Source: Takakia lepidozioides
Taxonomy: Eukaryota > Plantae > Bryophyta
Reading direction: 5' to 3'
Assembly: GCA_030704615.1 (NCBI GenBank)
Contig: CM060733.1
Location: 2,728,001 to 2,792,000, forward strand
DNA length: 64,000 nt
Shown here: piece after piece, positions 1,434-64,000 of the stretch
How the letters are laid out: every line of letters begins with the position of its first letter
Position numbering within the stretch: the stretch's first letter is position 1
Notes under the pieces: model-generated
The model's input: the letters and a program-made list of their open reading frames with translations, nothing else
Told to the model about the DNA's origin: nothing
The model's database searches: none
Program-made: the position numbers and the translations under genes

Positions 1434-2158
1434 TGTCGCGGCCCTTTGCCTTGAGGGCAGGGGGTCGGGACACATGAGGGGCTGCCCCTGTAGTGGGGGC
1501 AGCGGCAGCGATAGGTATGGGGGGCTGAAGCACCCTTGAGTGCCCAAGGCACTCAAGGAGGCGGAGGCGCTCACTAGGTCGAGCCCCGCACACCGGGTTG
1601 CGGTGGGGGTGGCTCCACAAGGGGTGGTGGTAGCTTAGCGGGACTTAGTGGGGGTGACATAGGACTCACCATGGGGGCGGAGACCTCGTGGTGGGAGTCG
1701 TGGGGAGTCTTGGGACTCATCACGGTCCATAGGGGCCGTGATGAGTGGGCCAAGACTCACCGCGACTCATCACCGGGAGTCGAGGGTTTTCGTGGTGGTT
1801 CGCCATAAAATGGCATGGCTGGTTATGAAACCCCCGCGGACAGCTACAAAAGTATATATAGGGAGTAGTAACCCCGAGAACGGTGCAAGCCCGTTGGTGA
1901 CCAAAAACTAGTGAGTAAGCGAACGAGCCGGAAAGCGACCAAAGAGTGGGGAGCTGTTCCGGACTGCCATCTACCAAAGGGAATTCTCCTAGTCCCAAAT
2001 AGGTGGAGGGTTTAGAGGGAAGCAAAGGGGGACCGTTATGTCCCGGTGAGCAGCCGAAGCTCCAAGTTGGCCCGGCGGCCAGGTTGGGAGTCAGGCGCGC
2101 GCATCAAAGCGAGTAACTATGACTTGAAGGGGAGCTTACCGAAGTGAGGTGCGCGACA
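1434..2158 (+). repeat. 5' LTR
   Basis: TGTCGCG...CGCGACA inverted termini; about 9 differences from the 3' LTR by manual count; TATATATA near 1853. Confidence 0.97.
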
Positions 2159-2160
2159 CT

Positions 2161-2172
2161 TGGTATCAGAGC
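2161..2172 (+). promoter_or_regulatory. Primer binding site (tRNA-iMet)
   Basis: TGGTATCAGAGC, 2 nt after the LTR end. Confidence 0.95.
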
Positions 2173-2213
2173 TTAGAGTTCAGTACGCGATCGTCCTTGG
2201 GATTGGCCTCATC

Positions 2214-5200
2214 ATGGGGTCGGGCAAGCCAAAGCGAAAGCGGAACGGCCCAAAAGATGATGATCCTGGTGAGCCCGATGGGGGCGACGTGTCACCGAGG
2301 CGGCCGTTTGAGGAAGCGATGAATGTTTCCGAAAACGAGGCCGCTCAAGAGCGGGAGGAATCCGAGGAGTCGGAGCCCGAGGAATCCTTGAGAGCTCCGA
2401 CAAACCAAGAGATGCCTCCCATGCCGGCAGCCTTTTGGGAAGGGTTGTTGGCGCAGTTTGGCGGGACGTTGAAAGACGTGTTGAAGGCGGCTAATGCCAC
2501 TTCCACTAAGGCAAAGTTTAAGGTGAAGCCTAAGGAACCCGGCACCTTTGAGGGTGTTCGAAATCGGAAGGCACTCAACACCTGGCTCCTGGAGCTAGAG
2601 CAGTACTTCCGGGCGGCCAAGTTGAGTGACGAGGATCGGGTGGAAGTGGCTCCCACCTATTTGAGGGGCTATGCTCAACAATGGTGGCAGAAACGCTTTC
2701 ACGACCGAGGCCCAAGCCTGGAAACCTTGAACTGGAGTGGGTTCAAGGAATTGATGAAGAGACAGTTTGTGCCCCTCAACGCGTCCTGGCTTGCCCGGGA
2801 CAAGATGAGGAATTTGAAGCAAACAGATGACATTCGGGGGTATGTCCAGGCTTTCAATGTGCTGTTGCTCAAAGTCGCGGACATGGCAGAACCAGAAATG
2901 GTCTTCAACTTTGTGGCGGGACTGGCCCCATGGGCCAGGCGGAAGTTGGAGGAGAAGCCACCCAAGACTTTGAATGAGGCAATTGAGAGGGCTGAATGTT
3001 TCTCGGATGTCCCTAGGGGTGAGAGACAAGGCCGTACGGAGCTGAACCACAAGAAGACCCGGCGGGAAGGTGACTCCTTCCGACCGGAAAAGAAGTGGGA
3101 TAGGCCACGCGGCGATAATGGCACGTGGAAATTGAAGGGAGGGCCTTCACACGTCAAGGCGGCACCCGGTGCTTCGAAAGGAAAAGCGGGTGGAGCGGCT
3201 TATGGCGGACAGAAGGCGACCTTTGATGGAGTGTGTTTCAATTGCGGGGAGCCCGGGCACATGGCCAAGAAGTGCACGAAGCCCCGGCAATTGAACATGA
3301 CTCAGGCGACCACGGAGCTGTCGGAAGATACCATCAGTCGCTTGGTGGAAGCGGTGGTCGCCAGGACTTGCAAGGTAGGCAACTATTCTTGTGAGTTGTA
3401 TCAGGAAACTGGCGCCCTGCGTAAACGGAGTCAGTTATTGTTCGTGGATGGGATAATATCCGGAACTAATGTGTCGTTGTTGGTGGACACAGGAGCGTCG
3501 CACTCCTTCATGACACCGACGGCGGCACAAAAGCTGGGACTCCCGACAAGTGACGTGGGGGCCTCTATTGAGGTGCGTTCTGCCAAAGGAGAACCACAGT
3601 TGGCGACAAGGTTGGCGTTTAATGTTCCTCTTCAACTGGGGAGTTGGGAGGACGTGAGAACTTCACCATCTGCGAGATCGATGGAGTGGATCTCATTTTG
3701 GGGATGACCTTTCTGAGTAAATCCGGAGCGGTCATAGATGGCCGCAAGAGAGTAGTCACGCTGCCATGTGGGAATAATGGCGAGGTCTTACGAGTGTCGG
3801 AAACGCCCAAATCCGTGGGAGGGCGAATAAACCTTCTGTCAGCAAGGGAGTGGGCCGTGGAGGAGGCACACGAACCCCAGTTTTTGCTTTACATTAGAGA
3901 AGTGAAGGGAGAAGGCGATGGGGAGCCGAGCCCAGATTGGATCAAGGGGATTTTGGAGAAATACCAGATGTGATGCCGGAGGATTTACCAAGCGGCTTGC
4001 CACCGCGAAGAGGAGTTGACCACAAGATTGAGATGATACCGGGATCGGAACCGCCTGCCAAGGCGCCCTACCGGTTGAGCCACAAAGAGTTGGTTGAGCT
4101 GAAGACTCAGCTCAAGGATCTAATGTCAAAGGGGTACATCCGGCCGAGTAAGTCACCTTACGGAGCCCCGGTGCTATTCGCAGACAAGAAGGATGGGACG
4201 CTGCGGATGTGTGTCGATTACAGGGCTCTGAATAAGGTGACTATCAAAAACCGGTACCCTTTGCCAAGGATCGACGACCTCTTCGATCGGTTGGCAGGAG
4301 CGAAGTATTTCAGCCGGATCGACTTGCGCTCCGGCTATCATCAAATTCGGGTGGCGGAAGGAGATGAGGAGAAGACCGCGTGCAGACAAGGTATGGTTCA
4401 TATGAGTTCTTGGTGATGCCTTTTGGGCTCACCAATGCACCAGCGACCTTTAGCACGCTGATGAACAGCCTTTTTCAGGAGTGGTTGGATGACTTTGTGA
4501 TCGTGTCAATCGACGACATCTTGGTGTACTCGAAAACAAAGGAGGAGCACCTGGAGCACCTCAAAAGGGTGTTCCAAAGGTTGCGGGAAGGGAAGCTGTA
4601 CGCCAAAGCTTCAAAGTGCAAATTCGGGGTCACGAAAGTGGAGTTCTTGGGGCATGTGATTACACAGGATGGGATCAAAATGGATGACAGAAAGGTGAGG
4701 GCGATCTTGGACTGGGAGCCTCCGACCTCGGTCCCGGGAGTGCGATCCTTCCTAGGACTCGCCTCCTATTACCGGAAGTATGTGAGAAATTTTGCCAAGA
4801 TCGCGGGGCCGCTGTCGGACCTTCTGTGTAAATCCAAAGTCTGGGTATGGAACACATTTTGTGGCCAAGCTTTTGCTGAATTGAAGCAGCGGATGGCGGA
4901 AGCTCCAGTCTTGAAAATCCCGGAGTTCGATCGTCCATTTGAGATTCATACAGATGCGTCGGACTTCGCGATTGGGGGTGTACTTATGCAAGATGGACGT
5001 CCAGTGGCTTACGAAAGTAAGAAACTGAATGAAGTGGAGCGACGGTGGCCTACGCACGAAAAAAAGATGAAGGCGGTGGTGCATTGCCTTGAGCTTTGGC
5101 GCCACTATGTTGGTTCCAACCCAGTGAAGGTGTTCACGGACAATGTCACGGTGAAGTATTTTGCCACGCAGCCCAAGTTGTCCCCAAAACAACTTAGGTG

Positions 5201-6773
5201 GCAAGATACTTTGGCGGTGTTCGACGTGGATATCCAGTACAAACCGAGATGAGACAAAGTGGTGACCGATGCTTTAAGTAGAAAGCAGCAGCTCTTGTTG
5301 GTGTACAAGGGCGAGACGGCGCTCCAAAGGAAGATCCGAAAGGCTTGCCGGAAGGATGAGCTGGCGAAGTCCGTGATGCAGGACTTGAGGATGGGGGTTA
5401 AATCGCAGTTCCACTTGCAAAATGGACTGCTCCGGTATAAGCAAAAACATCTCTACATGCCAAAGGGAGGGATCAGAGATAGCCTCTTGAGAGAATGCCA
5501 TGATAGCCCGCTTGCGGGCCACGGCGGAGCCAAGCGCACTGTGGCACTCTTGAAGAAAGAGTATTTCTGGCCCAAACTGAGGGAGGAGGCAGAGGAGTAT
5601 GTCAAGACATGCACCACATGCCAATAAAACCGGAGCGAGTACAAAAAGCAAGCGGGGCTGTTACAACCCTTGCCGATTCCAGAGGGGACTTGGGAAAGCG
5701 TCTCGATGGATTTCATGACTGCTATGCCGCTGTCAAAAGGATTCGATGCAATCATGGTGGTGGTGGATAGGTTCAGTAAAATGGGCCATTTCATCCCCAC
5801 CAAGGAGACGGCAACGGCGCAGGAGACAGGGCGACTTTACTTCGCCCACGTCTTAAAGCATCATGGAGTCCCGAAGGATATTGTCTCGGATCGCGATCCA
5901 AAGTTTACGAGTAAATTTTGGAGGACACTTTGGAAGAAGATGGGGACGAGGCTCAAGATGAGCACCGCCTTCCGACCTACGACCGACGGCCAAACAGAAA
6001 GGGTGAATTCCGTAGTGAAGCAGATCTTGCGGAATTACGTGTCGGCAGACCAAACAGACTGGGTGGAACACTTAGACGCGGCAGAGTTCTGTTATAATAA
6101 CACAGAACACTCCGCAACGGGAGTTTCCCATTTCGTATTGGTCTATGGAAAAGCACCTCTGGTGCCGACAAGTTGGGCCGCCCAGGACGTTGAGGAACCG
6201 GCAGTAGCGGCGGTACTGGAAGAACGCGAGCGTTTGTTGAAGCTCGCAAAGTACAACATTGCCAAAGCCAGGAAACGGTATGAAAGGCAGGCGAATCAAA
6301 AGCGGAGGGAAGTGAAGTTTGAGGCAGGCACAGAGGTCTGGTTGAACATCAAGAATTTCCGACTACCTCCGGAAGTGAGTCCGAAGTTCGTACCTCCGTA
6401 TGCGGGACCCTTTCGCATTCGGAAGGTTATGAATGAGGATGTGTATGAATTGGAGCTGCCGGCAAACAGCAAGGTGCACCCAGTATTCCATGTCTCCCTT
6501 TTGAAGCCTTACTTCAAAGATGAAGCGCGTCCGAATCGGCATCAAGTGTTGCGTCCGCCACCTATGCTGTTGGATCATGAAAATGAACCTGAGTACGAGG
6601 TGGAGGCAATACTTAAGTCGAGGAGGTTCAAGAACCGAGAAACGGAGTATCTCGTCAAATGGAAGGGCTATCATCATGTGGATGCATCTTGGGTGCGTGC
6701 CTCAGAAATGGGAAACGCATCCGAGGCGGTTGCAGCTTTCGAAGGGCGACCTCAAAAGCGGAAGAAACATTGA
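2214..6773 (+). pseudogene. Gag-Pol polyprotein (Gag, CCHC knuckle, protease, RT, RNase H, integrase, chromodomain), disrupted
   Basis: CFNCGEPGHMAKKC; LVDTGAS; RT YIDD changed to SIDD; TDASD; HHCC plus DDE integrase; AGPF; YEVEAIL...YLVKWKGY chromodomain; frameshifts near 3650, 3965 and 4390; stops near 5250 and 5625. Confidence 0.95.
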
Positions 6774-7677
6774 TGGGGACATCAACCTTGGAGCGTGGGG
6801 GAGGAAATGCATGCTTAGCCCGGCTTAGCTAGCTTAGGAATCCGATTACAAAAACTTGTATTGTACAAAATTTGTTATAAAGGAAATGGGTTCCAAATGT
6901 TGTGCGTCCTATTTTGTTTGGAATGGTGATGCATGGTATGGTTGGCTAGTGTGTAGAATGCATGCTAGCTTATAAAAGTGGGAGAGGTAAATTGGGTTAA
7001 TCGTGTGTTTGCGTAGTGCCGAAATCGGGTGACCCCCATCCAAGGGGCAAGGAAACTTGCGACTTCTTTGGGAGTTCACGTGCTAGTGCGCACCTGGCGC
7101 GTGCGCGTACTATAACTGCGCTACCGAGGGGGTTGCCTTGTAGTGCGGGCTAACGCGGAAGCTACGTGCTTCCGTTCACGTACTATAATCGTGTAACCTC
7201 GGGACGAAGTCGTAGTGCGGACTTCGGCGTGTTCCCGTACCTCAGGCCAGCATTCCAAGGCGGACCAATTGTAGTGATTGGGCACACGGTTGGTTCAAGG
7301 TTATCTTCCTAGTAAAAAAAGGTTCAAGGTGAACCCTTGCTCAAGGTGATGCCAAAAGTGGCATCATGAGCAATCGCAAGCAATGTTTTTGTAGTAAGGC
7401 GATTCGATCCTCAGGAAGGATTGTTCCTTGGCCTTGAAGTGGGCCAAGAAGAGTGCACTGGGAGGAGCTTGAGAGGCTCCATCCTTGGCCGGGACTTGGA
7501 GGAAGTCGGCCAAACTACCTAGTGGAGAGTAGAGTCAAGTGTGGGGTTTGGTTCTTTGCCATGGGACGCCATGGTGCGGAAACAAACTCCTTGATGTGGG
7601 ACGCCACAACTTGGATGTTCGTTTCTACAAAATGGACAAGTCGATGAGGACATCGACTCCCTGTTGGTAGGGGTGTG

Positions 7678-8402
7678 TGTCGCGGCCCTTTGCCTTGAGG
7701 GCAGGGGGTCGGGACACATGAGGGGCTGCCCCTGTAGTGGGGGCATCGGCAGCGATAGGTATGGGGGGCTGAAGCACCCTTGAGTGCCCAAGGCACTCAA
7801 GGAGGCGGAGGCGCTCACTAGGTGGAGCCCCGCACACCGGGTTGCGGTGGGGGTGGCTCCACAAGGGGTGGTGGTAGCTTAGCAGGACTTAGTGGGGGTG
7901 ACATAGGACTCACCATGGGGGCGGAGACCTCGTGGTGGGAGTCGTGGGGAGTCTTGGGACTCATCACGGTCCATAGGGCCGTGATGAGTGGGCCAAGACT
8001 CACCGCGACTCATCACCGGGAGTCGAGGGTTTTCATGGTGGTTCGCCATAAAATGGCATGGCTGGTTATGAAACCCCCGCGGACAGCTACAAAAGTATAT
8101 ATAGGGAGTAATAACCCCGAGAACGGTGCAAGCCCGTTGGTGACCAAAAACTAGTGAGTAAGCGAACGAGCCGGAAAGCGACCAAAGAGTGGGGAGCTGT
8201 TCCGGACTGCCATCTACCAAAGGGAATTCTCCTAGTCCCAAATAGGTGGAGGGTTTAGAGGGAAGCAAAGGGGGACCGTTATGTCCCGGTGAGCAGCCGA
8301 AGCTCCAAGTTGGCCCGGGCGGCCAGGTTGGGAGTCAGGCGCGCGCATCAAAGCGAGTAACTATGACTTGAAGGGGAGCTTACCGAAGTGAGGTGTGTGA
8401 CA
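7678..8402 (+). repeat. 3' LTR, preceded by a polypurine tract
   Basis: Near-identical to 1434-2158; GGTAGGGGTGTG immediately upstream. Confidence 0.97.
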
Positions 8403-9017: not shown

Positions 9018-9579
9018 CACTACAAACACCAAAACTCCAAAGCATGAATCACTATGAATGATTGTTCAAGTAATTTCGAGCACTTCATGTAAAGTAGTAA
9101 AGCAGTGGTTGCGCCAACTTCCGCAGTCGCAATTTCCACTGGGCATGTAGCACTGCAAGTTATGTGGTCTACTACCACGAGGCGCCCCGGGCCCGTGGCC
9201 ACGTGGCAGCAGTGGTGCTCGTCGTGGCGCCGCCACGTCGGCATCCACATCGTCGTCCACGTCCGCGTCCATGTGTCGCCACGCTTCAGTGAGTCGGTCC
9301 ACTCATCCGGAGGGAAAAGTCAAAGTCAGCCCAAAAGGTCAGACACACGGGTGGCCCTCCTGGTTACGCCACGTGGTTCTTCAGCATTAATCGCATTAAT
9401 CGCTGAGCAGTTGTTCGCGCGTCTGCGTCCTTTACCACTCCAATCATTGGATGTCCAACCCAACTACCACGTCTGTTGTAACTAGTCTGTTGTAACTTCC
9501 AGTCGATCCCAGTTTTTTGACTTTTACGACTCAAAATGAGTTGTTACCCCAGTGGTAAATGACACGAATGCTTCTAGTG
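9018..9579. mobile_element. Non-autonomous CACTA-like element
   Basis: Begins CACTACAAACA and ends TGCTTCTAGTG; CCACGT and AGTGGT internal motifs; flanks ACT and AAG do not form a TSD. Confidence 0.6.
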
Positions 9580-12500
9580 AAGTATTTCAGCCGGATCGAT
9601 TTGCGCTCGGGCTACCATCAAATCCGAGTGGCGGAAGGAGATGAGGAGAAGACCGCTTGCAGGACAAGATATGGTTCATATGAGTTCTTGGTGATGCCTT
9701 TTAGGCTCACCAACGCACCCACGACCTTTAGTACGCTAATGAACAGCCTTTTCCAAGAGTGGTTGGATGACTTTGTGATCGTGTACATCGACGACATCTT
9801 GGTGTACTCAAAAACAAAGGAAGAGTACCTGGAGCACCTCAAAAGGGTGTTCCAGAAATTGCGGGAAGAGAAGCTGTATGCCAAAGCTTCAAAGTGCAAA
9901 TTCGGGGTCACAAAAGTGGAGTTCCTAGGGCATGTGATTACACAGGATGGGATCAAAATGGATGACAGAAAGGTAAGGGCGATCTTGGACTGGGAGCCTC
10001 CGACTTCGGTCCCGGGAGTGCGATCATTCCTAGGACTCGCCTCCTACCGAAAGTATGTGAGAAATTTCGCCAAGATCGCGGGGCCGTTGTCAGACCTTCT
10101 GTGTAAATCCAAAGTCTGGATATGGAACACCTTTTGTGGCCAAGCTTTTGCTGAGTTGAAGCAGCGGATGGCGGAAGCTCCAGTCCTAAAAATCCCGGAG
10201 TTCGACCATCCATTTGAGATTCATACGGATGCGTCGGACTTCGCAATTGGGGATGTGCTCATGCAGGATGGACGTCTAGTGACTTACGAAAGTAAGAAAC
10301 TGAATGAAGTGGAGCGACGGTGGCCTACGCACGAGAAAGAAATGAAGGCGGTGGTGCATTGCCTTGAGCTTTGGCGCCATTATGTTTGTTCCAACCCGGT
10401 GAAGGTGTTCACGGACAATGTCACGGTGAAGTATTTTGCCACGCAACCTAAGTTGTCCCCAAAACAACTTAGGTGGCAAGACACTTTGGCAGTGTTCGAC
10501 GTGGATATCCAGTACAAACCGGGACGGAACAATGTGGTGGCCGATGCTTTAAGTAGAAAGCAACAGCTCATGTTGGTGTACAGGGGTGAGACAACGTTCC
10601 AAAGGAAGATCCGAAAGGCTTACCGGAAGGATGAGATGGCGAAGTCCATGAGGTGGGACTTGTGGATGGGGGTTAAATCGCAGTTCCACTTGCAAAATGG
10701 ACTGCTCCGGTACAAGCAAAAGCGTCTCTACGTGTCGAAGGGAGGGATCAGAGATAGTCTCTTGAGAGAATGTCATGATGGCCCGCTTGCGGGCCACGGC
10801 GGAGCCAAGCGCACCGCGGCACTCTTGAAGAAAGAGTATTTCTGGCCCAAACTGAGGGAGGAGGCCGAGGAGTATGTCAAGACATGCACCACATGCCAAC
10901 AAAACCGAAGCGAGTACAAAAAGCAAGCGGGGTTGTTACAACCCTTACCGATTCCAGAGGGGTCTTGGGAAAGTGTCTCGATGGATTTCATGACTGCTAT
11001 GCCGCTGTCAAAAGGATTCGATGCAATCATGGTGGTGGTGGATAGGTTCAGTAAAATGGGCCATTTCATCCCCACCAAGGAGACGGCAACGGTGCAGGAG
11101 ACGAGGCGACTTTACTTCGTCCACGTCTTCAAGCATCATGGATTCCCGAAGGATATTGTCTCGGACCGCGATCCAAAGTTTACAAGTAAATTTTGGAGGG
11201 CACTTTGGAAGAAGATAGGGACGAGGCTCAAGATGAACACCGCCTTTCGACCTACGGCGGACGGCCAAACGGAAAGAGTGAATTCCATGGTGAAGCAGAT
11301 CTTGCGGAATTACGTGTCGGCAGACCAATGAGACTGGGTGGAGCACTTGGATGCGGCAAAGTTATGTTATAATAACACAAAACACTCCGCAATGGGAGTT
11401 TCCCCTTTCGTATTGGTCTATGGAAAAGCACCTCTAGTGCCGACAAGTTGGGCCGTCCAGGACGTTGAGGAACCGGCAGCAGTGGCGGTGCTTGAAGAAC
11501 GCGAGCGTTTGTTGAAGCTCGCAAAGTACAACATTGCCAAAGCTAGGAAATGGTATGAATGACAGGCGAATCGGAAGCGGAGGGAAGTTAAGTTTGAGGC
11601 AGGCACAGAGGTTTGGTTGAACATCAAGAATTTCCGACTACCTCTTGAAGTGAGTCCGAATTTCGTACCTCTGTATGCGGGGCCCTTTCGCAGCCGAAAG
11701 GTTATAAATGAGGATGTGTATGAATTGGAGCTGCCAGCAAACAACAAGGTGCATCCGGTATTCCACGTCTCTGTTTTGAAGCCTTATTTCAAATATGAAG
11801 CGCGTCCGAATCGGCATCAAGTATTGCGTCCGCCACCTATGCTGTTGGATCATGAAAATGAACTTAAGCACGAGGTGGAGGTAGTGCTTGAGTCGAGGAG
11901 GTTCAAGAATCGAGAAACGGAGTATCTCGTGAAATGGAATGGCTATCATCATGTGGAGGCATCTTGGGTGCGTGCCTCAGAAATGGGAAACGCATCCGAG
12001 GCGGTTGCAGCTTTCGAAGGGCGACCTCAAAAGTGGAAGAAGCGTTGATGGGGACATCAACCTTGGAGCGTGGGGGAGGAAATGCATGCTTAGCCCGGCT
12101 TAGCTAGCTCAGGAATCCGATTGCAAAAAACTTGTATTGTACAAATTTTGTTATAAATGAAATGGTTTCCAAATGTTATGCGTCCTATTTTGTTTGGAAT
12201 GGTGATGCATGGTATGGTTGGCTAGTGTGTAGGATGCATGCTAGCTTACAAAAATGGGAGAGGTAAATTGGGTTAATCGTGTGTTTGCGCAGTGCTGAAA
12301 TTGGGTGATTCCCATCCAAGGGGCAAGGAAACTTGCGCATTCTTTGGGAGTTCACGTGCTAGTGCGCACCTGGTGTGCGCGCGTACTATAACTGCGCTAC
12401 CGAGGGGGTTGTCTTGTAGTGCGGATTAACGCGGAAGCTACGTGCTTCCGTTCACGTACTATAATCGTGTAACCTCGGGACGAAGTCGTAGTGCGACTTC

Positions 12501-13677
12501 GGCGTGTTCCCGTACCTCAGGCCAGCATTCCAAGGCGGACCAATTGTAGTGATTGGGCACACGGTTGGTTGAAGGTTATCTTCCTAGTAAAAAAAGGTTC
12601 AAGGTGAACCCTTGCTCAAGGTGATGCCAAAAGTGGCATCATAAGCAATCGCAAGCAATGTTTTTGTAGTAAGGCGATTCGATCCTCAGGAAGGATTGTT
12701 CCTTGGCCTTGAAGTGGGCCAAGAAGAGTGCACTGGGAGGAGCTTGAGAGGCTCCATCCTTGGCCGGGACTTGGAGGAAGTCGGCCAAACTACCTAGTGG
12801 AGAGTAGAGTCAAGTGTGGGGTTTGGTTCTTTGCCATGGGACGCCATGGTGCGGAAACAAACTCCTTGATGTGGGACGCCACAACTTGGATGTTCGTTTC
12901 TACAAAATGGACAAGTTGATGAGGACATCGACTCCCTGTTGGTAGGGGTGTGTGTCGCGGCCCTTTGCCTTGAGGGCAGGGGGTCGGGACACAAGAAGGG
13001 CTGCCCCTGTGGTGGGGGCAGTGGCAACAATAGATGCGGGGGCTGAAGCACCATTGAGTGCCCAAGGCACTCAATGAGGCCGAGGCGCTCACTAAGTGGA
13101 GCCCTGCACACGGGGTTGCGGTGAGGATGGTTCCACGAGGGGTGGCGGTAGCTTAGTGGGTCTTAGTGGGGGTGGCATAGGACTCACCATGGGGCGGAGA
13201 CCTTGTGGTGGGAGTCGTGGGGAGTCTTGGGACTCATCACGGTCTAATGGGGCCGTGGTGGGTGGGCCAAGACTCACCGCGACTCATCACCGGGAATCGA
13301 GGGTCTTCGTGGTGGTTTGCCATAAAAGGATGGTGTTGTTTGTGAAACCCCCGCGGACAGTCACAGAAGTATATATAGGGAGTAGTAACCCCGAGAACGG
13401 TGCAAGCCCGTTGGTGACCAAAAACTGGGGAGTGAACGAACAAGCCGGAAAGCGACCAAGGAGTGGGGAGCTATTCCAGACTGCCATCTACCAAAGGGAA
13501 TTTCCACTAGGCCCAAATTGGTGGAGGGTCTTTTGGAGGAGCAAAGGGGGACCGCTATGTCCCGGTGAGCAGCCGAAGCTCCGAGTTGGCCCGGCGGCCA
13601 CTTTGGGAGTTAGGCGCGCGCATCAAGTGAGTAAATTATGACTGGAAGGGGAGCTTACCGAAGTGAGGTGCGCGACA
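9580..13677 (+). mobile_element. 5'-truncated second copy of the Galadriel-like chromovirus (RT to chromodomain plus 3' LTR)
   Basis: Colinear with about 4302-8402; YIDD intact; stops at 11329 and 11560; starts abruptly at a CACTA end. Confidence 0.95.
12953..13677 (+). repeat. 3' LTR of copy 2
   Basis: TGTCGCG...CGCGACA, 725 bp, visibly more diverged from the copy-1 LTRs. Confidence 0.95.
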
Positions 13678-13834
13678 CAATCTTTGCAAGTGTGTTGGAC
13701 ATACCTTGTCAGAGGTACGTGTCGAGTATCAGGTCAATCGAAATTGATTGAAAGGGTGAACCCATTGTTCGATGTTCAAATGATTTTTTATTGCTTTCAA
13801 ACATTGCGAGTGTGTTGGATATACCTTGTTGGAC

Positions 13835-15915: not shown

Positions 15916-17335
15916 TCGCGAGGAAAAACGCGGAATAACCACTCTGGCAACCACTCATTTTGAGTGGGAAAAGACACCCAACCTCTCTGGCCCCAGAGTG
16001 GTTTAGAACCAATGGATCTTGACTCAGCAGTGGTTAAAGACATGACGTGTCCGAAGTGGTTAAAGACAGTGGTTACGATCACTTGCCTCCGAGTCCAGCT
16101 GTTCGCTTACGTGTCACAGTGGTAAGCCAAGTCACATCTGACGTGTCACAGTGGTAAACTAACCACTTCAGAACATAGACCACTTCCACCGTATGCGACG
16201 TGGACGCAGCAACTCCGTCGATCATACTTAGCAATGGACGGACACATGTCCGTATCCATATGGACACGTGGCCGAATCCAGTTAGACGATTATGGGCTCC
16301 ATTATCTGGACACGTGACGATATTGCAAATGAGCTCGTGCCCTATTTTAGGGATGTGCTGAGAAATGCAATGACTTCCCAAACAACTCTGTGAGTGAGAC
16401 TTAAATGACTCTAATAGTCATGCATGATTCGAGAATAAACAATGTATATTATCACTGAATGTGTGGTTCTAATAGTATTGATGTGTGCTAAAACCACTTA
16501 CTGAGTGGTTCTACCAGTATCAATGTAGTGGTTAGGTTGTGTGCTAAAACCACTGACGAAGTCATCTAGTGTGTCCCACCAAGTAGGAACCATGTTTTTG
16601 AATTATTACTACCAGAGTGGTATGTAAGTGATTGGGGCTACATCTGGAGGAGTACAACCACTCTTGCATACTGTCATAGTCTTACATATACCACTGACAG
16701 AGTGGTGTGTAAGTGATTCATACATTCCCATATAATTCTCCTACAATTCCCATACATTCGAAGTGAATCTGCAAATCCAAATACTCTTGAAGCTTCACCA
16801 TTCAAAAAACAGAATAGAATCCAAGACAGTAAGTGTTGGAACAGAGTCAACAAATCCAGCCATGATAAAGGGTGACATAGCTATTGATCCACAGGGAATC
16901 ATAGGTAACCTTATGCTTGAAATCCGGCACTCTTGGATGAATCTGGACCCACACTCCATCCCTGCTCCTTCAGCTATCCATGCCTCTGCATAGACCATGC
17001 ATACATTCTTGCCTTGCTGCTAGCAGCTGACAATGACAGCCTACATCTGTTCTAGGAAACACCCAACTCAACTTATCACTCTAGTTCCTATGCTCAATTG
17101 CATCTACTACTCTTTGTAATCCATGGATAGCTGAAGGTCCAGATTCATCCAAGAGGGCCAGAATTCAGCAATAGGGTATGTCACCCTACAAATCGGACAT
17201 TTATCTTTGGCTTGCTGCTAGCAGCTGACAATGACAACCTAAAGTTGTTCCAGCAAACACCCCAACCCTATTTATCACACTAGTTCCTATGCTCAATTGC
17301 ACATCTGCTACTCTCTGTAATCCAACAGGCATTCA

Positions 17336-17570
17336 CCTTCTTGCCTCGATCGTCCCACCATTGACTGGGGTCAGAAAAGTATTCATTCCACAACTTCTCC
17401 TTATCTCTATTACCTGTTTCTGGATACTTTCTGTTGTCACATTGGCAGTATCATGTCAGTCATTCCAAACTATCAAAGGTTCACTCAACCAACTAACTTG
17501 CAGAATTCAACATGGCCGATTCTGATAAGAGGGAAAAACAGGGTGAAATGTGTTGAAGAAGGTGCCTTCA
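17336..17570 (-). pseudogene. Degenerate first exon with WWD motif (copy C)
   Basis: Homologous to 674-919: EKLWNEYFSDPSQWWDDRGKK then GT; the downstream intron-like sequence also matches about 920-1200. Confidence 0.6.
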
Positions 17571-17639
17571 TTACCAGTGCCTGAGTGTTGACCATCTACC
17601 CATGTAGGTTTCTTGTAGCCATTGATCCATCTGGTACAT

Positions 17640-18225
17640 TTCCAGCTTTGGTGATGCAACCATGCACCTCCGATGCCCTTTTCCAGGGCTGCTAGGCTTG
17701 CACACGCACACAAATATGATGTGGTCGAACTTCACCCCTTCCCCCATCATTTGCTTTCAGGTCTCCAAAGCCCCATCTAGTGCCCCTACTCTGCATACCC
17801 TGCAAGCATCACATTCCACAACACCACATCTCATTCAGCCATAGTGTTGAACACTCCCTTGGCATCCTCAATGCTACCATATTTGGCATACATGGCCACC
17901 AGAGCAGTGTTCAGGATGACATCTGGAACAATTGCAGATTTGATCATGTCACCAGGGATCTCCTTGCCCTTTTTCAGGGCTGCCAGACGCACTGCAAACA
18001 CACACAAACCTTATGTCGGCGGGCTTCACCCCTTCCCCCATCATTTGCTCATAGGTTGGAGCCTCCATCTCGCACCCCTGCTGTGCATACCCCGCAAGCA
18101 TCGCACTCCACGACACCACATCTCGTTCAGCCATAGTGTTGAACACTCCCTTGGCATCCTCGATGCACCCACATTTGGCATACATGTCCACCAGGGCAGG
18201 GGCAATGTTCAGAATGACATCTGGT
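17640..18225 (-). pseudogene. PLS-class PPR fragment (about 2 degenerate S-P-L triplets)
   Basis: ALVDMYAKCGCIEDAKGVFNTMAERDVVSWSAMLAGYAQQG...GVKPA; second unit ALVAMYAKYGSIEDAKGVF; frameshifts. Confidence 0.9.
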
Positions 18226-18435
18226 AATCTGACAAACATTCTCCTTTTAGAATTGTTCCAGCAAATGCCCCAACCCTACTGACTTAGAGGCTGTAGTGTC
18301 CAAAGCCATGTCCGTTTCCAGAAAATTGTCTGATAAAAATGAAGTTAGGCAGAAAAATTCCCTAGACTTGTTTCCAGTCTGTGACATGGGGGAAGACATC
18401 ATGGATGACCTCAAGGGTCTACCCACTCTCGGCAC

Positions 18436-19914: not shown

Positions 19915-20352
19915 GATTTGGTGATATCTTGCACAAATCTGCATGGAATTGTATCAGATGTCATTCTGAACAATACCCTGGTGAACTGTTTGCAAAATGT
20001 GGGTGCATCTAGGATGCAAAGGGAGTGTTTGACACTATGGTTGAACGAGATGTGGTGTCGTGGAGTGCGATGCTTGCAGGGTATGCATGACAGGGATGTG
20101 GGATGGAGGCTTTGGAGAGCTATGAGTAGATGATGGGGGAAGCACATCATGTTTGTGTGCATTTGCAATGTGCGTGCAAGCCTGGCAGCCCTGGAGAAGG
20201 GCAAGAGGTGCAAAGGGATATCATCAAAGCTGGAATTGTGCCAAATGTCAATCTAAACACTGCCCTGGCAGCTTTGGAAATGGAGAAAGAGGTGCATGGC
20301 GACATCTTCAGAGGTGGAATTGTACCAAATGACATTCTGAACAATACCCTAG
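19915..20352 (+). pseudogene. PLS-class PPR fragment
   Basis: FAKCGCI*DAKGVFDTMVERDVVSWSAMLAGYA; EVHGDIFRGGIVPNDILNNTLV. Confidence 0.85.
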
Positions 20353-20740
20353 TCTCCAAACTGAGGGATCATGGAATGTATTTCTACAGTAGGTTGCTCA
20401 TCTTGGGAAGCCACTGTTGCTTCTCAGTTTGGACCTGTGACGTCATTTGAGATTGGGGCTATCGGTAAAATTCAGTCTTTGCTGAATTTGGATGTAAGAT
20501 GTGACTTGCAACTTGTGGCAGGTCATTGCAAAAGCAAGAGTACCTCTTGTAAAGTTTGTGGAGACTCAGAGTAACATTTCCTTTGACATAAGGTACTTCA
20601 GTTAGTGTTTTTATTCGTACATTCAGGGAGGGAACTGGTAGTTTAATATGCCTAATGACTTGCCAGAAGGAAAAAGGTTTCATAGTCTCATGGTCTGATG
20701 GTCTTTGAATAGGAGATGAAACATTTGCATATACTCACAA

Positions 20741-20976
20741 CTCTGAAGATGACGCCATGGACCTCTTTCCCCTTTTCCAAAGCTGCCAGGGCAGTGTTCA
20801 GATTGACATTTGGCACAATTCCAGCTTTGATGATATCCCCATGCACTTCTTGCCCTTCTCCAGGGCAGCCAGGCTTGCACAAGCATTGCAAATGCACACA
20901 AACACGATGTGTTTCCCCCATCATTTGCTCATAGGTCTCCAAAGCCTCCATCCCACGTCCCTGCCGTGCATACCCT
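20741..20976 (-). pseudogene. PPR fragment; inverted duplicate of 20077-20312
   Basis: MEALETYEQMM...EVHGDIIKAGIVPNVNLNTALAALEKGKEVHG; about 90% identical reverse complement by manual alignment. Confidence 0.85.
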
Positions 20977-21252
20977 GGACCAAGCTGACTCTCCCAAGAA
21001 CCTTGTAAACATCAGCGAGGACTTAAGTGCACACAAGCGATAGGGCTTAGTGGGGCTTAGTGCTTGAGGGAAAAAAAAAAACATCGCGTTGGTCCATGAG
21101 AACCACCATGGTGCAGCTAAGCGAGCAGAGATTGAAACACAAATTGCGTAAACATCAGGAAGAATACCAAATCATGGTACTAACAGGAGCCAAAAGCCCA
21201 CATTTGCAGGATGGACAAACTTCTTCACACCTTACATTAAGAAAAAGCCACA

Positions 21253-35600: not shown

Positions 35601-37768
35601 GCACTCTCCCTTTCCTCTCTGCTTCTGTTTGCTGTTCAAAGGTAGGCTTCCTGCCCTGAGTTTAAATTTCGGTCTAGTGCCGAGAGTGGACAAACTGTGA
35701 TGTACGGAAATTGAAAGAGCTGCAGTTTTGTTGTAAGATTGGCATCTCTGCCTGACGTGAAGTTCTGTAAGTTCTTGTCTGATGCATATATTGTGGTCCT
35801 GCTTGGACATAATTTCCACCCGTCTGTATTTTGTGGCAGTAGGGAAGCAACGAGAGTCCGTTGAACTAAAAAACGTTGGACACCCAGGAGGCCTTGAAAC
35901 TTTTGGTTTTGTGCCCGATAGATACTGTGAGGGGCCGGGCTGTCAACCCTTTGGGTGGACAGGCTTGCGACCTTTCCTCCAAGTATTCCTTGGAGGAAAG
36001 ACGATTGCAGCAGTTCCAAATTTTTTCCCACCAGGAAACCTGGACTCCAGTTGCCCAGAACTAAGCCATAAGTGCCTGCAGGGGTGACAACGAGCTGAAG
36101 AGCCTGCCCTTTGTCAATCTGTCCATAGCAGTCGATGCAAACTGAAATTTGGGTGAGTGGATAACTAGACCCTGGTATGGGTATGATTTCATGACCTCAA
36201 CAAACACCTGTGTTGCTTGCACTGGGCAAGAGAGGATGGAGACTGAAGAACTTCTTCCAATGTCCACTCTACCACAGTATACGTGAGGCTCTCCACCTAA
36301 GAGAATCTCTTGAGGTTGAGGCCCAGTTTTCTGGTTCTGGTGGCTGTTATTGGATGCCCCACCTCTTATTGATGATGTTTTCTATTTTTCTTTGTCCCAA
36401 AGCTCATTGATCTTCCCATGGACATTCTAAAGTTTCTTTCTTTCTGTCTGTCTATCTGTCTGTCTGTCTCTCTTTATAAATAAGGCTCCGGGAGGGTGTG
36501 TTTCCTGTGGGGTCGATGGCCATAAAGCAACCAACATTTGCAGGACCAGCATGAGTATATTCTCTCTTTGTGGATAGGAAATCCATGTAAAATAGATCTC
36601 CAGAAGCCTGAATCATAAAAAACTGAACTACATAGAAATACTTGAACTGGACAGCTCTACCTATTGGGAAGGACCCTACCTTTGCCACATATCCCAGCGG
36701 GGTTGGTAAGTCTCATGGATTGGAGTGATGTTCCCGAAGTCATGACCATAGTCACTGGTGCCTGTTCCATTGGTGATGTAAAGGTTGGCATAGGACAGGT
36801 CTCCCAGAAAAAGCACCAGGTCTGGCTCGTTGTGACGCAGATGGTCGAAAGTGGATGTGGAGTTATAAGTAAGACCCAAATCTCCGATGAATCCCATTCG
36901 ATTGGGGTAGCTCGATGGGCTTGGGGCCTTCAGAGTTCTAAAGGTGTACTCACTGCTCATAGCTGAGTAAGAAGGGTCCCCGCATTGGTAATAGTACTGT
37001 GTATCTGGTGCTAGCCCTGGCCAAAAAAATTCAATCACTGTACAGTTGGTATCACAGAATTGAGCAAGTCTGTCTACTAAGTCATAAAACAACTTGGGAC
37101 CTGAAAATGGAGGGCTCGATGGTAAATTGAGAGAGTCACCTGTGAGGCGAACGTGGTGGATGATGCCTGACGTGTAGTTGAGAAGACCTTGGTATGGGTA
37201 CGTTTGGCTGTACACCTCCGACGTCCCATTCGCATTTTGAGTATATTTTCCTGAGGTGGTCCCGTAGTATACAACACTGCTCACACTATTGGGGTCCAGC
37301 GGAGTAACCTTCGGCCCCATTTGTGCATCTCCTGCACGACATTTTGAGTTCACCCCTTTAGTCTCTCTAGATTCTATCTCATTCTCTCTCTGCATTGCCA
37401 AGTTGAAGCAGAGGATTATGTAGACAAGGACAGAAGACCTGAAGGCCAGGAAATATGAACCAATCTAGCTGAGGGTCGTGAAGACTGTACACAGCACAAA
37501 ATGCGACAGGAACGGTGAACCCACCTGTGACCCAGGACACCCACATGGCATCGGGGGTAGAAAGAGAAAGAAAAAGTTGCTCGGGGGTTATGCCAGCAAC
37601 GTGCTTCACCACTCGGGAGTTATCCATGGGCAGATCCTCACTGAAAGCGCGAATCCTCGGGTCAAATGGAACCGTGACTGGTGAGAACGGCCCGTCCAGT
37701 GTGGTCGGGATACTGGCCGAGCAAGTCATCATGCACATGGAAACAACAACAGCCAATTGAATCCTCAT
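32672..37768 (-). CDS. Purple acid phosphatase, PAP15/PAP23 (phytase-type) group; exons 37768-37525, 37331-37140, 37016-36680, 34425-34208, 33786-33596, 33215-32931, 32797-32672 (about 530 aa)
   Basis: Signal peptide; IPTTLDGPF; metal-ligand motifs GDLG, GDLSY, GNHE, WHPPWY, GHVH; all GT-AG junctions keep frame; the exact start codon and last exon are less certain. Confidence 0.93.
34560..36470. mobile_element. LINE (RTE-like) remnants in PAP intron 3, with an internal inversion
   Basis: Plus strand: GVKQGCPLSP, YADD, GLQVNLSKTKIM. Minus strand 35214-36205: EVMKSYPY and CPLCGQSEDSIHFLLHC. Plus strand near 36250: FFQCPLY. (CTGT)n tail at about 36443-36470. Confidence 0.8.
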
Positions 37769-59245: not shown

Positions 59246-60239
59246 TCAACTAACAAGGTGGAGCAGCCCAGAGAGGACGAGGTGCAGACCAAGGGCAAGC
59301 TCAACATGGCCAAGGACGCGGAGGTCAGGGTGGTGACCAAGGCATGGCCAACCGGCTTCAGCAGCTAGAGCAGAGGCTCGCTGCCATGGCCACAGCTTAG
59401 GTGGTACCGGCTCCAAGGCCGGATGGTCCACCTCCTGCTCCTGAGGGAGGAGACTTAGGAGGCATGGGATTCATGTGCGGGGCAGCACACTAGTGAGGGG
59501 TGCAACTACCACTACCACTACCACTATGGGGGGGGCTCCACTACCACTGGTGAGGGGTGCCACTACCACTACCACTGTGGGTGGGGCACCACTACCACTA
59601 CCACTATGAGCGGGGCAGCACTACCACTAGTGCAAGTGGACTCAGCTGCGGCATTGACTCGAAGAGCGGCACGAGTTCCTGAGCCACGGGGTGCGGAGGT
59701 GGAGTTGGATCCACAGCGTGGGGAGGCAAGCCGTCAAGCCAAGCTTTCTAAGTCATTCACATTAGCGGAGATAGTGTCGACACCATCTATGGCACCTAGT
59801 TCTCGCCCGATTGTTACCGAGGCGGAGGTTACTATGCCATTGGGGAGAGCTACACGGGTAGCACCACTACCTAGTGTTGCCAAGATTACGGCAGCTAATG
59901 TGCTGCTGGGGGCGGCCACAGCTGTGTGCCCGGCTCCATTGTTCTCGGCTACCATGATTGCGACGCCGGGGGTAAGACCAGCTAAGGTGTTCAGGCTGGC
60001 AGCCACACTCTGTGAGAGTAGGGAGGTTACTTCATCTTCTCCAGAGATAGTGGGAGGTGTAGTGCCGGAGGGATCCTCGGATGTGAGGGTCAAGACTGCC
60101 ACGGTGGTGCCATGGCAAGCTGCAGCTGCCAGGTTGATGGAGCTGTCAGCTAGGCCAGCCATTGAGCGCGCCATGGTGACACCTGGAGTTGTCATATTAG
60201 ACAACCAGGATGACATTTTCTGTTTGAGTGGACCGGCAG

Positions 60240-60560
60240 GCAAGAGGTACCGGCCACTGCGGGTCTTGTTGGACTCGGGAGCTTAGCCATTGATGTTGGG
60301 CAGACCTGCTATTGCAGGCTTGGGCCTCATGGAGGTGGATATGGAGTCGTGCCCTTTCCAGATACAGACATCTCTGGGAGGATCAGAGCAGGCTCGGGGC
60401 ATGACACGGCGTGAGTTGGGTATCCGACTACAGCCGGATCATCCTATAGATGGCTCAGTGATGAGAGCCAAGGCCATTGTGACAGACGCGGTCTCGTACG
60501 ATGTCCTTGTTGGTGAGGCAGTGTTGTACCCCATGGGCTTCACCCTGGATTTTTGGGAGA
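60240..60560 (+). pseudogene. Retroviral-type aspartic protease domain
   Basis: LRVLLDSGA*PLML...YDVLVG. Confidence 0.85.
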
Positions 60561-60970
60561 AGTCAGCTTCCTATAGGCCTGCATGGCAGTCAGGGGAGGG
60601 CCGACGTGTGCAGCTCCCTGTGACGTTCATAGGAGGAGTTGCGGTTAGTAAGCGAAGCAAGATGCCAACACTGGCCGCATTCACAGCTGCAGTGACTTGG
60701 CCTAGAGAAACTCATTCAGAGGATGTGTCACCTCCGGGAGAGCAAGATGACATGTATGGTATGGCGGAGTTGCCTGCCATGGTTGCTCACACTCCATTGT
60801 GGGGTTCGAGCAAGGATTTGCAGCGGGTTGTTGATTGTCGTGTGCAACAAGCCTGGGTAGAGGCTTTTGTACCGTCAGGAGAGGAGGAGAGTGCGGGGAT
60901 TGCACCAGGACCACCTCAGTTATCACCATTGGACACCACACCGATCGTGTGGCAGTGTCCGGATAAATGC

Positions 60971-61890
60971 ATTTGCCTTCTGGATTTGTTTGGCAGGATT
61001 AGCACCGGGTTGGCTGTTGTTCTACAGGCAAGTGTACGAGTACAACGTTACCTGTATGTGGAGAGGGATGAGACTGCACGACGCGTCTCCCTACGCCATG
61101 TTGCTCAGTTGGTGCAGCAGTACCCTGAGTTGTTGTCGGTGTCTGCAGTTCGTGGATATCAGCAGGCCTTGCCAGCAGACATTTTGTTGCTGGGGGCGCA
61201 GGATTTGGAGCGGGTTGGCTCCATTGATTTGGTAGTGGCAGGTTGGCCCTGCTAAGGGCATTCATCAGCCGAGCATGGCAATGGATTGTGAGACTCGAGG
61301 TCGGGTCTGTTTTGGGAGATGGTGCGGGTTTTGCGCCACTTACAGCTTCAGCAGGCTGTATCTCTAGCATACATCTTGGAGAATGTGGCACTGATGGGCG
61401 ATTCTTGGGCCAGGGTGATGGCCAGTGTGCATCAAGTCGGGTCGAGGCTTAGGTCAGCAGTGTTGCTGGATGCAGCTGCAGTGGGGTCACGGGCTCATCG
61501 TCCACGGTTATGGTGGACTAACTTGATGCCACCCGCACTCCTCAAGCGTGCATTACAGCGGCCAACACACCTCACAGTGGATAACATTTTGGACACAGGC
61601 AGGCAGTCTCAGTGTGTGAGACACGATGATAGTTCGCCTTTGGCAGTGGTTAACAAGATGGGTCAACCACGAGCAGCACTACATACACTGCTCAGCTTCC
61701 TAGGATCGCATGCTTTCTAGGATAGTGGACCTGGCCTCCTGTGGGATGCTCAGTTGCAGCAGTTAGTGGAGCCTAATGCTGATGAGCGAGAGAGGGCTAT
61801 GGGTTTTTCCACTGGGACCACGGCGGTGCCTTCTCTTTCTGAGGCATCACGTCGTCAGGTGTTGGGGCAAGCGATGGATCTCAATTGCTT
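60971..61890 (+). pseudogene. DNMT3-like DNA (cytosine-5) methyltransferase domain inside pol
   Basis: I LDLFGRISTG; II YVERD; III ADI; IV DLVVAGWPC; V SGLFWE; VI YILENV; VIII SRAHRPRLWWTN; IX ERERAMGF; X RRQVLGQAMD; single frame with 3 in-frame stops. Confidence 0.92.
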
Positions 61891-62839
61891 GATCTGGATT
61901 ATCAGCTTGGCTATGGCTGAGCAACGTAGAGTGAAGAGTGCACTTCTGTTAACGGTCTCTCTGCCTACCGAGACGGTACAGGCAGTGAGTGGGGGCGAGC
62001 CGGTGAGGACCACGGGATATAGACATCCATGGTACACGTGGGAGGTGCTCGAGGTTCATAGGGAGTTGGCAGCCAAGGCGGCTGTGATGGATGTGGTTGG
62101 GGATTCTTCTCGGGTTGAGGAGGTCCTCAACGATGAGATGATGGGGCAGGATGAGGCCTTGTCATTGACTGAGCAGGCAGGGAGTACTGCTCATGAGGTT
62201 GCGGCATAGCAACCACGGGACGCGTCTCCTACCTCTAAGTCTGCTGGACTTAAGGTTGCAGTTACGGAGGACAATTGGGAGCCTGACATTGGACCCATTG
62301 TCACTAGAGGAGAGAGACGACGTATACGGCAGTTCCTGAGGGCTTACAGGAATTGCTTTGCCTCTCGTGCTACGGTGGAGGAGCAGGAGAGACATGTTCA
62401 GGTTGTGCATCGACCGGGTTTGGCCAATAGGGATGCGGATGGATTGAGTCGCAATCCATGCACGAGCTTGCAGGATGACATTGGAGCTCGGTGGCATGGT
62501 GAGGCGGACGAGGAGATGGTACGGGGATGACATGCATCTGCCTTTTTGTGTATCTTGGCATCGGGAGGTCAGGTTGGACCTACAACAGGGATGACTGTAG
62601 ACGGAGTGTCTGAGGACCTTGAGGCTAGTGATGAGCCAGGTGGTGCCAGAGATATACATGAGGATTCGGTTGTGTTGGACTACCTCCGCACTGGAGACAC
62701 GACAGCTAGTGTGACTACCAAAGAGAGGAATCGGATCCTACAACGAGCCAAGAGGTTCAAGTGGGAGGGGATGCATCTGCTTCGAGTGTGGGAGGATGGT
62801 CGAGTGAGGATCGTACCTCACCCAACACGGGGTGCACGG

Positions 62840-63400
62840 TTAGTGCGGCATGCCCATGAGGAGTTGGGGCATTTTGGAGTGCGACGCACTCATAGTTTAC
62901 TGCAGGGGCAATATTGGTGGCGTGGTATGCACACAGAGGTGCAACAGTTTGTGGCTAGGTACATGGTGTGTGACAGCCGGATTTGCCTACATCTCTTCGT
63001 AGGGAGGCTGCAGTAGTCCTCAACCTTGATGATCTGGATATGTGGACACAAGCATGTGCCCAGCGGGCAGAGTTGTTCAAGAGAGTCATGCCTATGGCTT
63101 TTGAGAATCTTGCTATTGCCCAACACCGAGACACATTGAGGTATGCCACTATACGCGGAGGGGGATATCGGCCAGGTGTTCGGCGTTTCCACCCTGGGGA
63201 CTATGTGTATATGCAGCAAACAACGCCTACAACCTTGGATGTCACAGCAGGACGTGTGATTCTAAGGGTCAGGGAGGTGTTGCCTTCAGGAGTGTTGATT
63301 CTAGAGGGTCGAGATGGCATGATATGGAAGGACCATGTGCGTAATTGTGCGCCATGTCACCTTCCACATGTGGATGGGAGGATAGATCCCAACCTTGCAG
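62840..63400 (+). pseudogene. Integrase remnant: zinc-binding N-terminus and C-terminal part, DDE core absent
   Basis: HEELGHFG...YWWRGMHTEVQQFVARYMVCD joined with a frameshift to PDLPTSLRR...AQHRDTLRY...FHPGDYVY. Confidence 0.85.
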
Positions 63401-63420
63401 TGCTACCTACAGGATTGCGT

Positions 63421-63556
63421 TGCATGTTATGTGAGCATGCTCGTGGTGCCGCCACTATGTTGGTGTGTGATCGATGCTCAAGAGGTTGGCACATGGGATG
63501 CTTGACACCACCTCTTGAGAGGGTTCCTGATGGAGATTGGTTATGTCTACACTGCT
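63421..63556 (+). pseudogene. PHD finger at the integrase C-terminus
   Basis: CMLC...MLVCDRCSRGWHMGCLTPPLERVPDGDWLCLHC, a complete C4HC3 pattern. Confidence 0.93.
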
Positions 63557-63824
63557 TGGGATAGTGGCAGTGGATATGACTAGTGGCAGCTCAAAAGACA
63601 TGGGAGGCCAAGCTCATAGGAGTCAATACACGAGATCCCAGGCTCAAGTTCATAGGTTGCAAGACGGCGATTAACGATGGGGCAACTCTTGTACCCGGCC
63701 TCTTGATCTATTGAGTTTGAATGTAGTAGGGACAGTGGTGGAGGACTTAGTGAGGCTATGGCCACTATCACATCTTGTGGCTACCTGGACTTAGTGGGAC
63801 CTAAGCACCAGCTAGGGGGGCGAT

Positions 63825-64000
63825 TGTGATGGGCTAGTGGCAGCCTAGTGATGGACTAGTGGCTGCACTAGTGGTGGCTAATGGCAGCCTAGTGGTGGAC
63901 TAGTGGCTGCACTAGTGGTGACTAGCGGTTGTCTAGTGGCAGCCTAGTGGTGCACTAGTGGTGGACTAGTGATAGACTAGTGTTTGGTGTGCACATATGT
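63825..64000 (+). repeat. Start of the 3' LTR, with a CTAGTGG tandem array
   Basis: TG after a purine tract; repeats of about 11 nt, CTAGTGG(CAGC/TGGA/CTGCA); runs off the window edge. Confidence 0.65.

Follow-up and report, generated by a model that had tools for sequence, protein, structure and literature searches.

The closest described relatives of the element reported here each hold a part of its makeup. KnitGypsy-Dnmt3 (de Mendoza 2018, PMC5890265; named in 10.64898/2026.05.21.726589) is a Ty3/Gypsy element whose polyprotein includes an intronless DNMT3-related domain, as does that of the family examined here, and retrotransposon methyltransferases have been proposed to methylate the element's own cDNA (PMC5890265). 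PHD fingers are called widespread in transposons (PMC6673714, PMC8557442), and PHD-transposon fusions have been surveyed (10.1101/2021.11.30.470311). Among green-lineage Gypsy polyproteins they occur in Gypsy-7a_cRei (PMC9940879) and REM1 (Perez-Alegre 2005), where they were proposed to limit harmful insertions. The EpiLTRs combine a histone reader and one or more DNA methyltransferases in one LTR element, as found here (10.64898/2026.05.21.726589), and chromoviruses have a chromodomain at the C terminus of the integrase; one of them, MAGGY, targets H3K9me. PHD-bearing Gypsy elements, Gypsy-DNMT3 elements and reader-plus-writer elements are already in print, each separately.

We analyzed a window of 64,000 nucleotides from the moss Takakia lepidozioides. 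A preliminary description had proposed that an integrase in this window ends in a PHD finger placed where chromoviruses carry a chromodomain, and that the element had assembled a reader-plus-writer kit directing integration or methylation to chromatin of a given H3K4 state. The feature is the PHD finger at the C terminus of an integrase; the copy has internal deletions and belongs to an old Ty3/Gypsy family of the green lineage, which also has a DNMT3-like domain. A literature search that covered few subscription papers yielded no report joining a PHD finger and DNMT3 in one Gypsy family, nor any PHD/DNMT3 Gypsy element in bryophytes or with a readthrough layout. The putative readthrough layout, the two positions of the methyltransferase and the changed finger make the element worth testing.

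The window copy and its damage

The element lies on the plus strand and retains, in order, remnants of the Ty3/Gypsy series PR-RT-RH-INT, which is complete in related loci and proteins. On its 5' side it breaks off at about 59254 against a different Gypsy element, on the minus strand, and its 5' LTR is absent from the window. The junction is head-to-head, with the minus-strand element broken within RT and the PHD/DNMT element within gag. The end of gag and a linker (59254..60172), recognized from the translation and a by-eye likeness to the Marchantia protein P0251, are followed by an aspartic protease (60173..60607) with a DSG motif at about 60272 and one stop at 60284; a protease also precedes the methyltransferase in relatives. 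The DNMT3-like C5-cytosine methyltransferase domain (60971..61918) has the PC, ENV and RxR catalytic motifs, and its frame is interrupted by stops at 61253, 61289 and 61718. Read with X at these three stops, it matched DNMT3A (E 8e-11), DNMT3B (6e-7) and DRM2 (1e-2) among sequences of solved structures, and the ranking among the 49 solved sequences matched was DNMT3A, then DNMT3B, then DRM2 and HhaI. A Pfam search of the broken halves detected nothing, although the solved-structure search did find the domain.

Downstream, the start of RT and the end of RNase H (62210..62458) flank an internal deletion with its junction at 62363/62397. The integrase begins with an HHCC zinc-binding domain (62837..62974; PF17921, 50.7 bits), immediately after which, at about 62975, the catalytic core has been deleted with a change of frame; the domain search gave no match to a core in this element. 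An open frame at 62974-63564 (+) then encodes the remainder of the integrase, comprising a post-core C-terminal helix (63034-63153) and an SH3-like beta barrel (63187-63366), both placed by a structure model and together (63034..63366) of 64-67% mean identity to 30 relatives, with the PHD finger last. Beyond it, a non-coding part with short repeats (63565..64000) runs to the window edge, is covered by host contigs and probably leads into the 3' LTR. Self-comparison gave no LTR pair for this element, the 5' end of which is missing and the 3' end of which lies past the window.

With its RT/RNase H region and integrase core deleted and its DNMT3-like frame carrying stops, the window copy is dead. 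Host contigs from run X1 (48,373) cover all 30 bins of the element, mostly at 90-99% identity. One contig (record 28 of X8) carries, between 62363 and 62397, an additional 1,281 letters, loose contig ends occur at the sides of that junction in X1, X3 and X5, and others lie ahead of 62975 in X5 and X8. The X8 contigs, only guessed to be RNA, were used as evidence of sequence presence and not of expression. The missing RT/RNase H and integrase core parts are present in other host copies, and the element is multi-copy. The CpG observed/expected ratio was 0.55 for the element, 0.54 for the whole window, 0.87-0.91 for two chromovirus copies and 0.20 for the neighboring Gypsy; these figures give no sign of self-methylation either way.

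The window also holds a chromovirus-type element at 1432-8402, whose LTRs (1432-2158 and 7676-8402) are 98.8% alike, and its insertion is therefore recent. A second such element (9559-13678), 93% alike to the first, lacks its 5' part. Exons of a purple acid phosphatase lie at 36676-37464 on the minus strand and are closest to moss proteins, being 77-78% identical to Ceratodon and Sphagnum and, among the matches listed, at most 67% to named liverworts and seed plants, as fits a moss host. Decayed repeats at 500-1430, 16880-18230 and 19930-20980 were labeled PPR-like by eye, and within them is an inverted repeat pair of 91% (20077-20316 and 20738-20977).

The PHD finger and the histone tail it may bind

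The finger (63421-63555, +) reads C-x2-C-x11-C-x2-C-x4-H-x2-C-x14-C-x2-C, a C4HC3 arrangement with eight of eight zinc ligands and a Trp two residues before Cys7, and a stop codon at 63562-63564 closes its frame. The suggested Pfam search matched PF00628 (42.8 bits, cut-off 24, E 5e-11). An alignment-based model had pLDDT values of 85-93 across the finger and superposed on solved PHD fingers (DPF2/3, BAZ2A and MOZ) at 0.5-1.5 A over 46-47 residues, which supports a predicted cross-brace fold. Of 32 aligned sequences, 30-32 conserve the zinc ligands, and mean identity to relatives is 57% for the finger versus 67% for the SH3-like domain. The top fold matches included the Tudor-PHD modules of PHF1 and UHRF1; kinship to these was rejected, as the barrel-then-PHD arrangement superposed at 12-14 A rmsd.

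Ligands, Pfam match and model together confirm that the frame ends in an intact C4HC3 PHD finger. What had been proposed of the integrase thus holds for the finger and not for the enzyme itself, which is broken by the deletion of its core. The positional parallel with chromoviruses is likewise confirmed: the comparator chromodomain of the unrelated chromovirus-type element in the window (6594..6746, +; PF00385, 47.4 bits) follows SH3_Tf2-1, and both reader domains sit after the SH3-like domain of an integrase. In a quick tree, the RT of the family is far from that of the window chromovirus, on a long branch.

Readers of H3K4me3 require an aromatic cage (10.1101/715474). In the same source, PHD1 of KDM5A is described as holding A1 of H3 with L309, P331, G333 and W335, R2 with D312 and D315, and K4 with E305 and N-terminal carbonyls. 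Among the 60 best of 81 solved matches to the window finger, CHD4, PHF12, BAZ2A, KMT2C, KAT6A, DPF3, PHF21A, KDM5A, ATXR5, AIRE and UHRF1 lead, KDM5B and DPF2 also occur, and BPTF, TAF3 and ING are not found. For comparison across the family we used a strict PHD pattern, which fits 96 of 120 proteins (24 not) and yields 21 short-tail and 75 long-tail fingers. Two residues before the His, at what we take to be the cage Trp position, the window finger has Gly; it has no aromatic cage, and the position is aromatic in 1 of the 96 fingers.

With KDM5A positions located by their distance from Cys3 and from the final Trp rather than through a printed alignment, the residues contacting A1 and R2 (L308-L310, D312, P331, G333 and W335) have equivalents in the window finger. 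The Asp after Cys3, equivalent to D312, is present in 91/96 fingers (20/21 short-tail, 71/75 long-tail) and the Pro of the A1 pocket in 90/96 (20/21 and 70/75); 18-21 of the 21 short-tail fingers retain the Pro, Gly and Trp of the A1 pocket as well as the R2 Asp. The acidic patch corresponding to E305/D306 is found in 2/21 short-tail versus 52/75 long-tail fingers, and the mean net charge is +1.5 versus -4.1. The window finger has Ala-Ala at this patch and Ser at D315, a position that is mostly Ser in short-tail fingers.

Judged by these residues, reading of K4me3 by the finger is excluded, binding of the unmodified H3 tip is likely, and sharp discrimination of K4 by the land-plant fingers is doubtful; the changes in acidic patch, D315 and charge may even mean that H3 binding is weak or lost. 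The solved matches, the A1 pocket and the R2 Asp support a likeness to readers of unmodified H3. The proposal that the finger reads the state of H3K4 was not borne out, there being no cage for K4me3 and the acidic residues for K4 having been lost in 19/21 short-tail fingers.

Layout, descent and the roles of finger and methyltransferase

The integrase end, a query that itself includes the PHD finger and is PHD-biased, retrieved 139 of 2,029 candidate proteins, and 118 of the 120 listed contain PF00628. Named sources of relatives are Marchantia, Calypogeia, Sphagnum, Pleodorina, Haematococcus and Cymbomonas, together with Coleochaete, Klebsormidium and Closterium. The Marchantia models P0274-P0279, P0002 and P0004, annotated as "PHD-type domain-containing protein", correspond to pieces of the integrase end in this family, and P0317, an intact RT-RH-integrase-PHD protein of the family labeled uncultured cyanobacterium, probably derives from plant DNA caught up in a metagenome bin.

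A search from the methyltransferase side, which is not PHD-biased, gave 2,520 representatives (E <= 0.001). Among the best 150 of 2,520, 49 proteins reach the SH3-like domain; PHD is present in 43/49 and a chromodomain in 0/49. Two of the six remaining proteins break off inside the PHD finger, three end in or just after SH3 and one is clearly without the finger. In the same best 150 of 2,520, Glu-Cys stands in place of the catalytic Pro-Cys motif in 68/150 proteins, and 47/150 have Pro-Cys. We also recovered 80 metagenome loci in 43 clusters (44 after one split by hand), 28 of which were uninformative. PHD and the start of RT with upstream DNA are retained in 16 loci, and 14/16 have a methyltransferase match before RT. 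Loci L024 and L044 were rejected as DNMT-less members and left out of the count, being deletion derivatives also without the RT start. A search for LTRs in 7/80 of these loci, which are decayed, gave no clear pair.

Two positions of the methyltransferase became evident. In 45 proteins with both RNase H and integrase, it lies between the two in 24 and before RT in 1, and the called protein has none in 20/45. The position between RNase H and integrase goes mostly with a long tail after the PHD finger, and its named members are chlorophytes. A quick RT tree (35 rows, long-branch outgroups) separated long-tail from short-tail groups with support of 100, and a tree of the methyltransferase (20 before-RT rows and 22/78 after-RH rows) gave the same split with support of 98; the trees are unrooted and would fit joint descent with one relocation. 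Algal-type members (P0070, P0091, P0123 and others) have a tail of about 200 residues after the finger in 53 proteins. Many of these tails carry DPFxGxG, ND and SPPF/SPW motifs, which are degenerate in many copies, and they give weak Pfam matches to D12 adenine methyltransferases and are often preceded by a Tudor-like barrel. A SAM-dependent fold is predicted for the tail, resembling KsgA, M.BseCI and others, and the tail is possibly a second DNA methyltransferase.

Co-occurrence across family copies was thus high but not strict. P0330 (2,327 aa) and P0335 (2,138 aa) are complete protease-DNMT-RT-RH-integrase frames without PHD, in which the catalytic Cys, ENV and RxR are intact, P0078 and P0087 run from protease through PHD with the methyltransferase absent, and PHD has been lost altogether in one streptophyte branch. 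Finger and methyltransferase are separable modules in an old, loose pairing, not parts of a wired kit. The idea that this element assembled the kit did not survive the comparison, the pairing having come down by descent in chlorophytes, streptophyte algae, liverworts and mosses. That the methyltransferase is an active writer also lacks support: no methylation by the Klebsormidium Gypsy enzyme was obtained in yeast, an outcome that was judged inconclusive in the same study (PMC5890265).

Between methyltransferase and RT, 72 nt before the RT start, the window copy has an in-frame stop in UAG-CARYYA context (62207..62215). None of the five other stops checked in the element is followed by CARYYA, and the full pattern occurs 2 times on the plus strand of the window. 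No alternative letter is listed at 62207-62215 in 4/4 host runs covering the site; the stop at 61289, by contrast, is different in nearly all host contigs. UAG-CARYYA stands 82-88 nt before the RT start in 7/14 DNMT-bearing loci, with two more one letter off and five without, and it is in frame in 3/3 loci with a readable frame. Chance would give the motif in 0.8% of cases per locus, in a 51-nt test window picked after inspection; the 14 loci are related decayed copies, and a binomial value overstates the case for a conserved stop. We count as the stronger point that the motif agrees between the window copy, at 54% GC, and loci at 34% GC. Intact relatives, on contigs of up to 17 kb, are called as proteins of 1,031-1,056 residues beginning 7-21 residues before RT because the conserved stop ends the upstream frame. 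P0024, P0330 and P0335 read from methyltransferase to RT without a stop, and the readthrough feature therefore belongs to a sub-lineage. CARYYA is a readthrough signal of plant viruses (PMC4132726), and reporters with the TMV context gave readthrough of 32% in transient and 6-10% in stable expression (PMC2754532). A conserved in-frame stop followed by CARYYA, the type I (UAG-CARYYA) arrangement, is what we find, and the stop at 62207 is likely leaky, serving programmed readthrough.

We lean, if only somewhat, toward a reading in which the finger tethers integrase to nucleosomes through the unmodified H3 N-terminus and the methyltransferase works apart from it. Ribosomes would mostly stop after Gag-PR-DNMT and sometimes (6-32% in plant reporters) continue into RT-RH-INT-PHD, and the stop codon would govern how much enzyme is made per integrase. 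Made with Gag, the methyltransferase would be packed at Gag-like levels and freed by the protease, most likely to methylate the element's own cDNA; probably it is not an enzyme that the finger steers but a protein on its own, present in larger amounts. The integrase-PHD would dock on A1-R2-T3 of H3, tethering the integration complex as a chromodomain does, and K4me3 would at most weaken this binding, biasing insertions away from active promoters. A PHD-bearing Chlamydomonas Gypsy element shows intergenic insertion at 2.6 times expectation (PMC9940879), a bias that may reflect selection in an element whose sequence was set beside the family by description only. Targeting is plausible for integration and unlikely for PHD-steered methylation, DNMT and PHD being split by the stop. 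We regard as tentative, and as rather improbable, the broader reading that the clade, ancient and spread over the whole green lineage, holds an epigenetic toolkit, in which land plants would combine a DNMT moved to the Gag frame, packing of many methyltransferases per integrase by readthrough of the plant-virus type, pre-methylated copies and PHD docking on K4-unmethylated nucleosomes, and algae a DNMT by the integrase and, beyond the PHD, a second amino-methyltransferase-like domain.

A stronger form of the coupling originally suggested, with the finger steering the methyltransferase to H3K4-unmethylated chromatin as ADD does, would need an uncleaved polyprotein or the integration complex to hold the two together. 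It draws on the frequent co-occurrence, on the DNMT3-like character of the enzyme, on a finger of the unmodified-H3 class and on the algal layout, where the methyltransferase directly before integrase (24/45) could place DNMT-INT-PHD in a single chain; coupling of the ADD kind is more plausible for that layout. Since the RT and DNMT trees split alike, however, shared descent alone explains the co-occurrence. In the lineage of the window copy, the two domains are about 1,000 residues apart across the conserved stop, and complete elements carry either module alone, with catalytic DNMT residues kept in P0330 and P0335 lacking PHD and with PHD in P0078 and P0087 lacking DNMT. With DNMT on the Gag frame and PHD on the readthrough frame, ADD-like reading and writing is unlikely and tethering of integrase likelier, and we consider the coupling quite unlikely.

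The land-plant finger might instead have ceased to read histones and now cap the integrase in a structural, DNA-binding or protein-binding capacity, an alternative we hold unlikely but somewhat less so than the coupling. The loss of the acidic patch and second R2 acid and the reversed net charge in short-tail members, the lower identity of the finger than of the SH3-like domain and the absence of PHD from one streptophyte branch all fit a cap, but retention of the A1 pocket and R2 Asp in nearly all short-tail fingers would be unexpected if only the fold mattered, and the consistently kept zinc ligands also speak against it. Least probable, and in our estimate very unlikely, is a role of the finger in trans or once integration is complete, in which it would compete with host readers of unmodified H3 or recruit remodeling so that the inserted copy stays expressed. 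PHD fingers do recur in unrelated transposons without fusion to integrase, where chromatin restructuring has been proposed (PMC8557442, PMC9940879), but the end of an integrase on a low-abundance frame would be a poor place for a decoy.

Tethering of integrase remains the reading we prefer, and the family offers natural controls in its two methyltransferase positions, its single-module members and its fingers with and without the acidic patch. Methylomes and histone maps exist for moss and Marchantia, making self-methylation and chromatin targeting testable in land plants.

Comparison with known elements

Like the streptophyte Gypsy-DNMT3 elements, the window family has a Gypsy polyprotein that includes a DNMT3-related domain bearing catalytic motifs. 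KnitGypsy-Dnmt3 was reported from an alga only, with the methyltransferase within the Pol frame and DIRS-like repeats, whereas the window family is found in a moss host and has a putative readthrough stop between DNMT and RT. The only link to it among the relatives is the K. nitens protein P0116 (RH-integrase-SH3-PHD); no named K. nitens DNMT was among the 30 relatives looked up, and the likeness rests on descriptions. PHD is not mentioned in the text passages or three supplements of PMC5890265; Fig. 4c of that paper may show one. Gypsy-7a_cRei has no DNMT listed in its description (PMC9940879), unlike the window family. The moss non-chromovirus lineage Phygy of REXdb is described with an NCGN target duplication, no extra domain and the frame layout "ND" (PMC6317226); if Phygy is the PHD/DNMT family, a CG-centered target would bear on the role of the methyltransferase.

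In the EpiLTRs a chromodomain is combined with a DAM domain and with a DNMT4-sister DNMT, and their authors separate them from Gypsy-DNMT3 (10.64898/2026.05.21.726589). The window family differs in having PHD, a DNMT3-like enzyme and a frame that closes after PHD; algal members, with their predicted second methyltransferase-fold domain, would share the multi-enzyme makeup of the EpiLTR type. Chromoviruses, like this family, place a small histone-reader fold after the SH3-like domain of integrase, a chromodomain there and a PHD finger here. DNMT3A/B resemble the family in that the catalytic domain is most like DNMT3A and a PHD-like reader of unmodified H3 belongs to the same genetic unit. In DNMT3A/B, the ADD domain adjoins the catalytic domain within one chain, whereas the window family has a canonical C4HC3 PHD finger about 1,000 residues downstream of its methyltransferase, beyond a stop.
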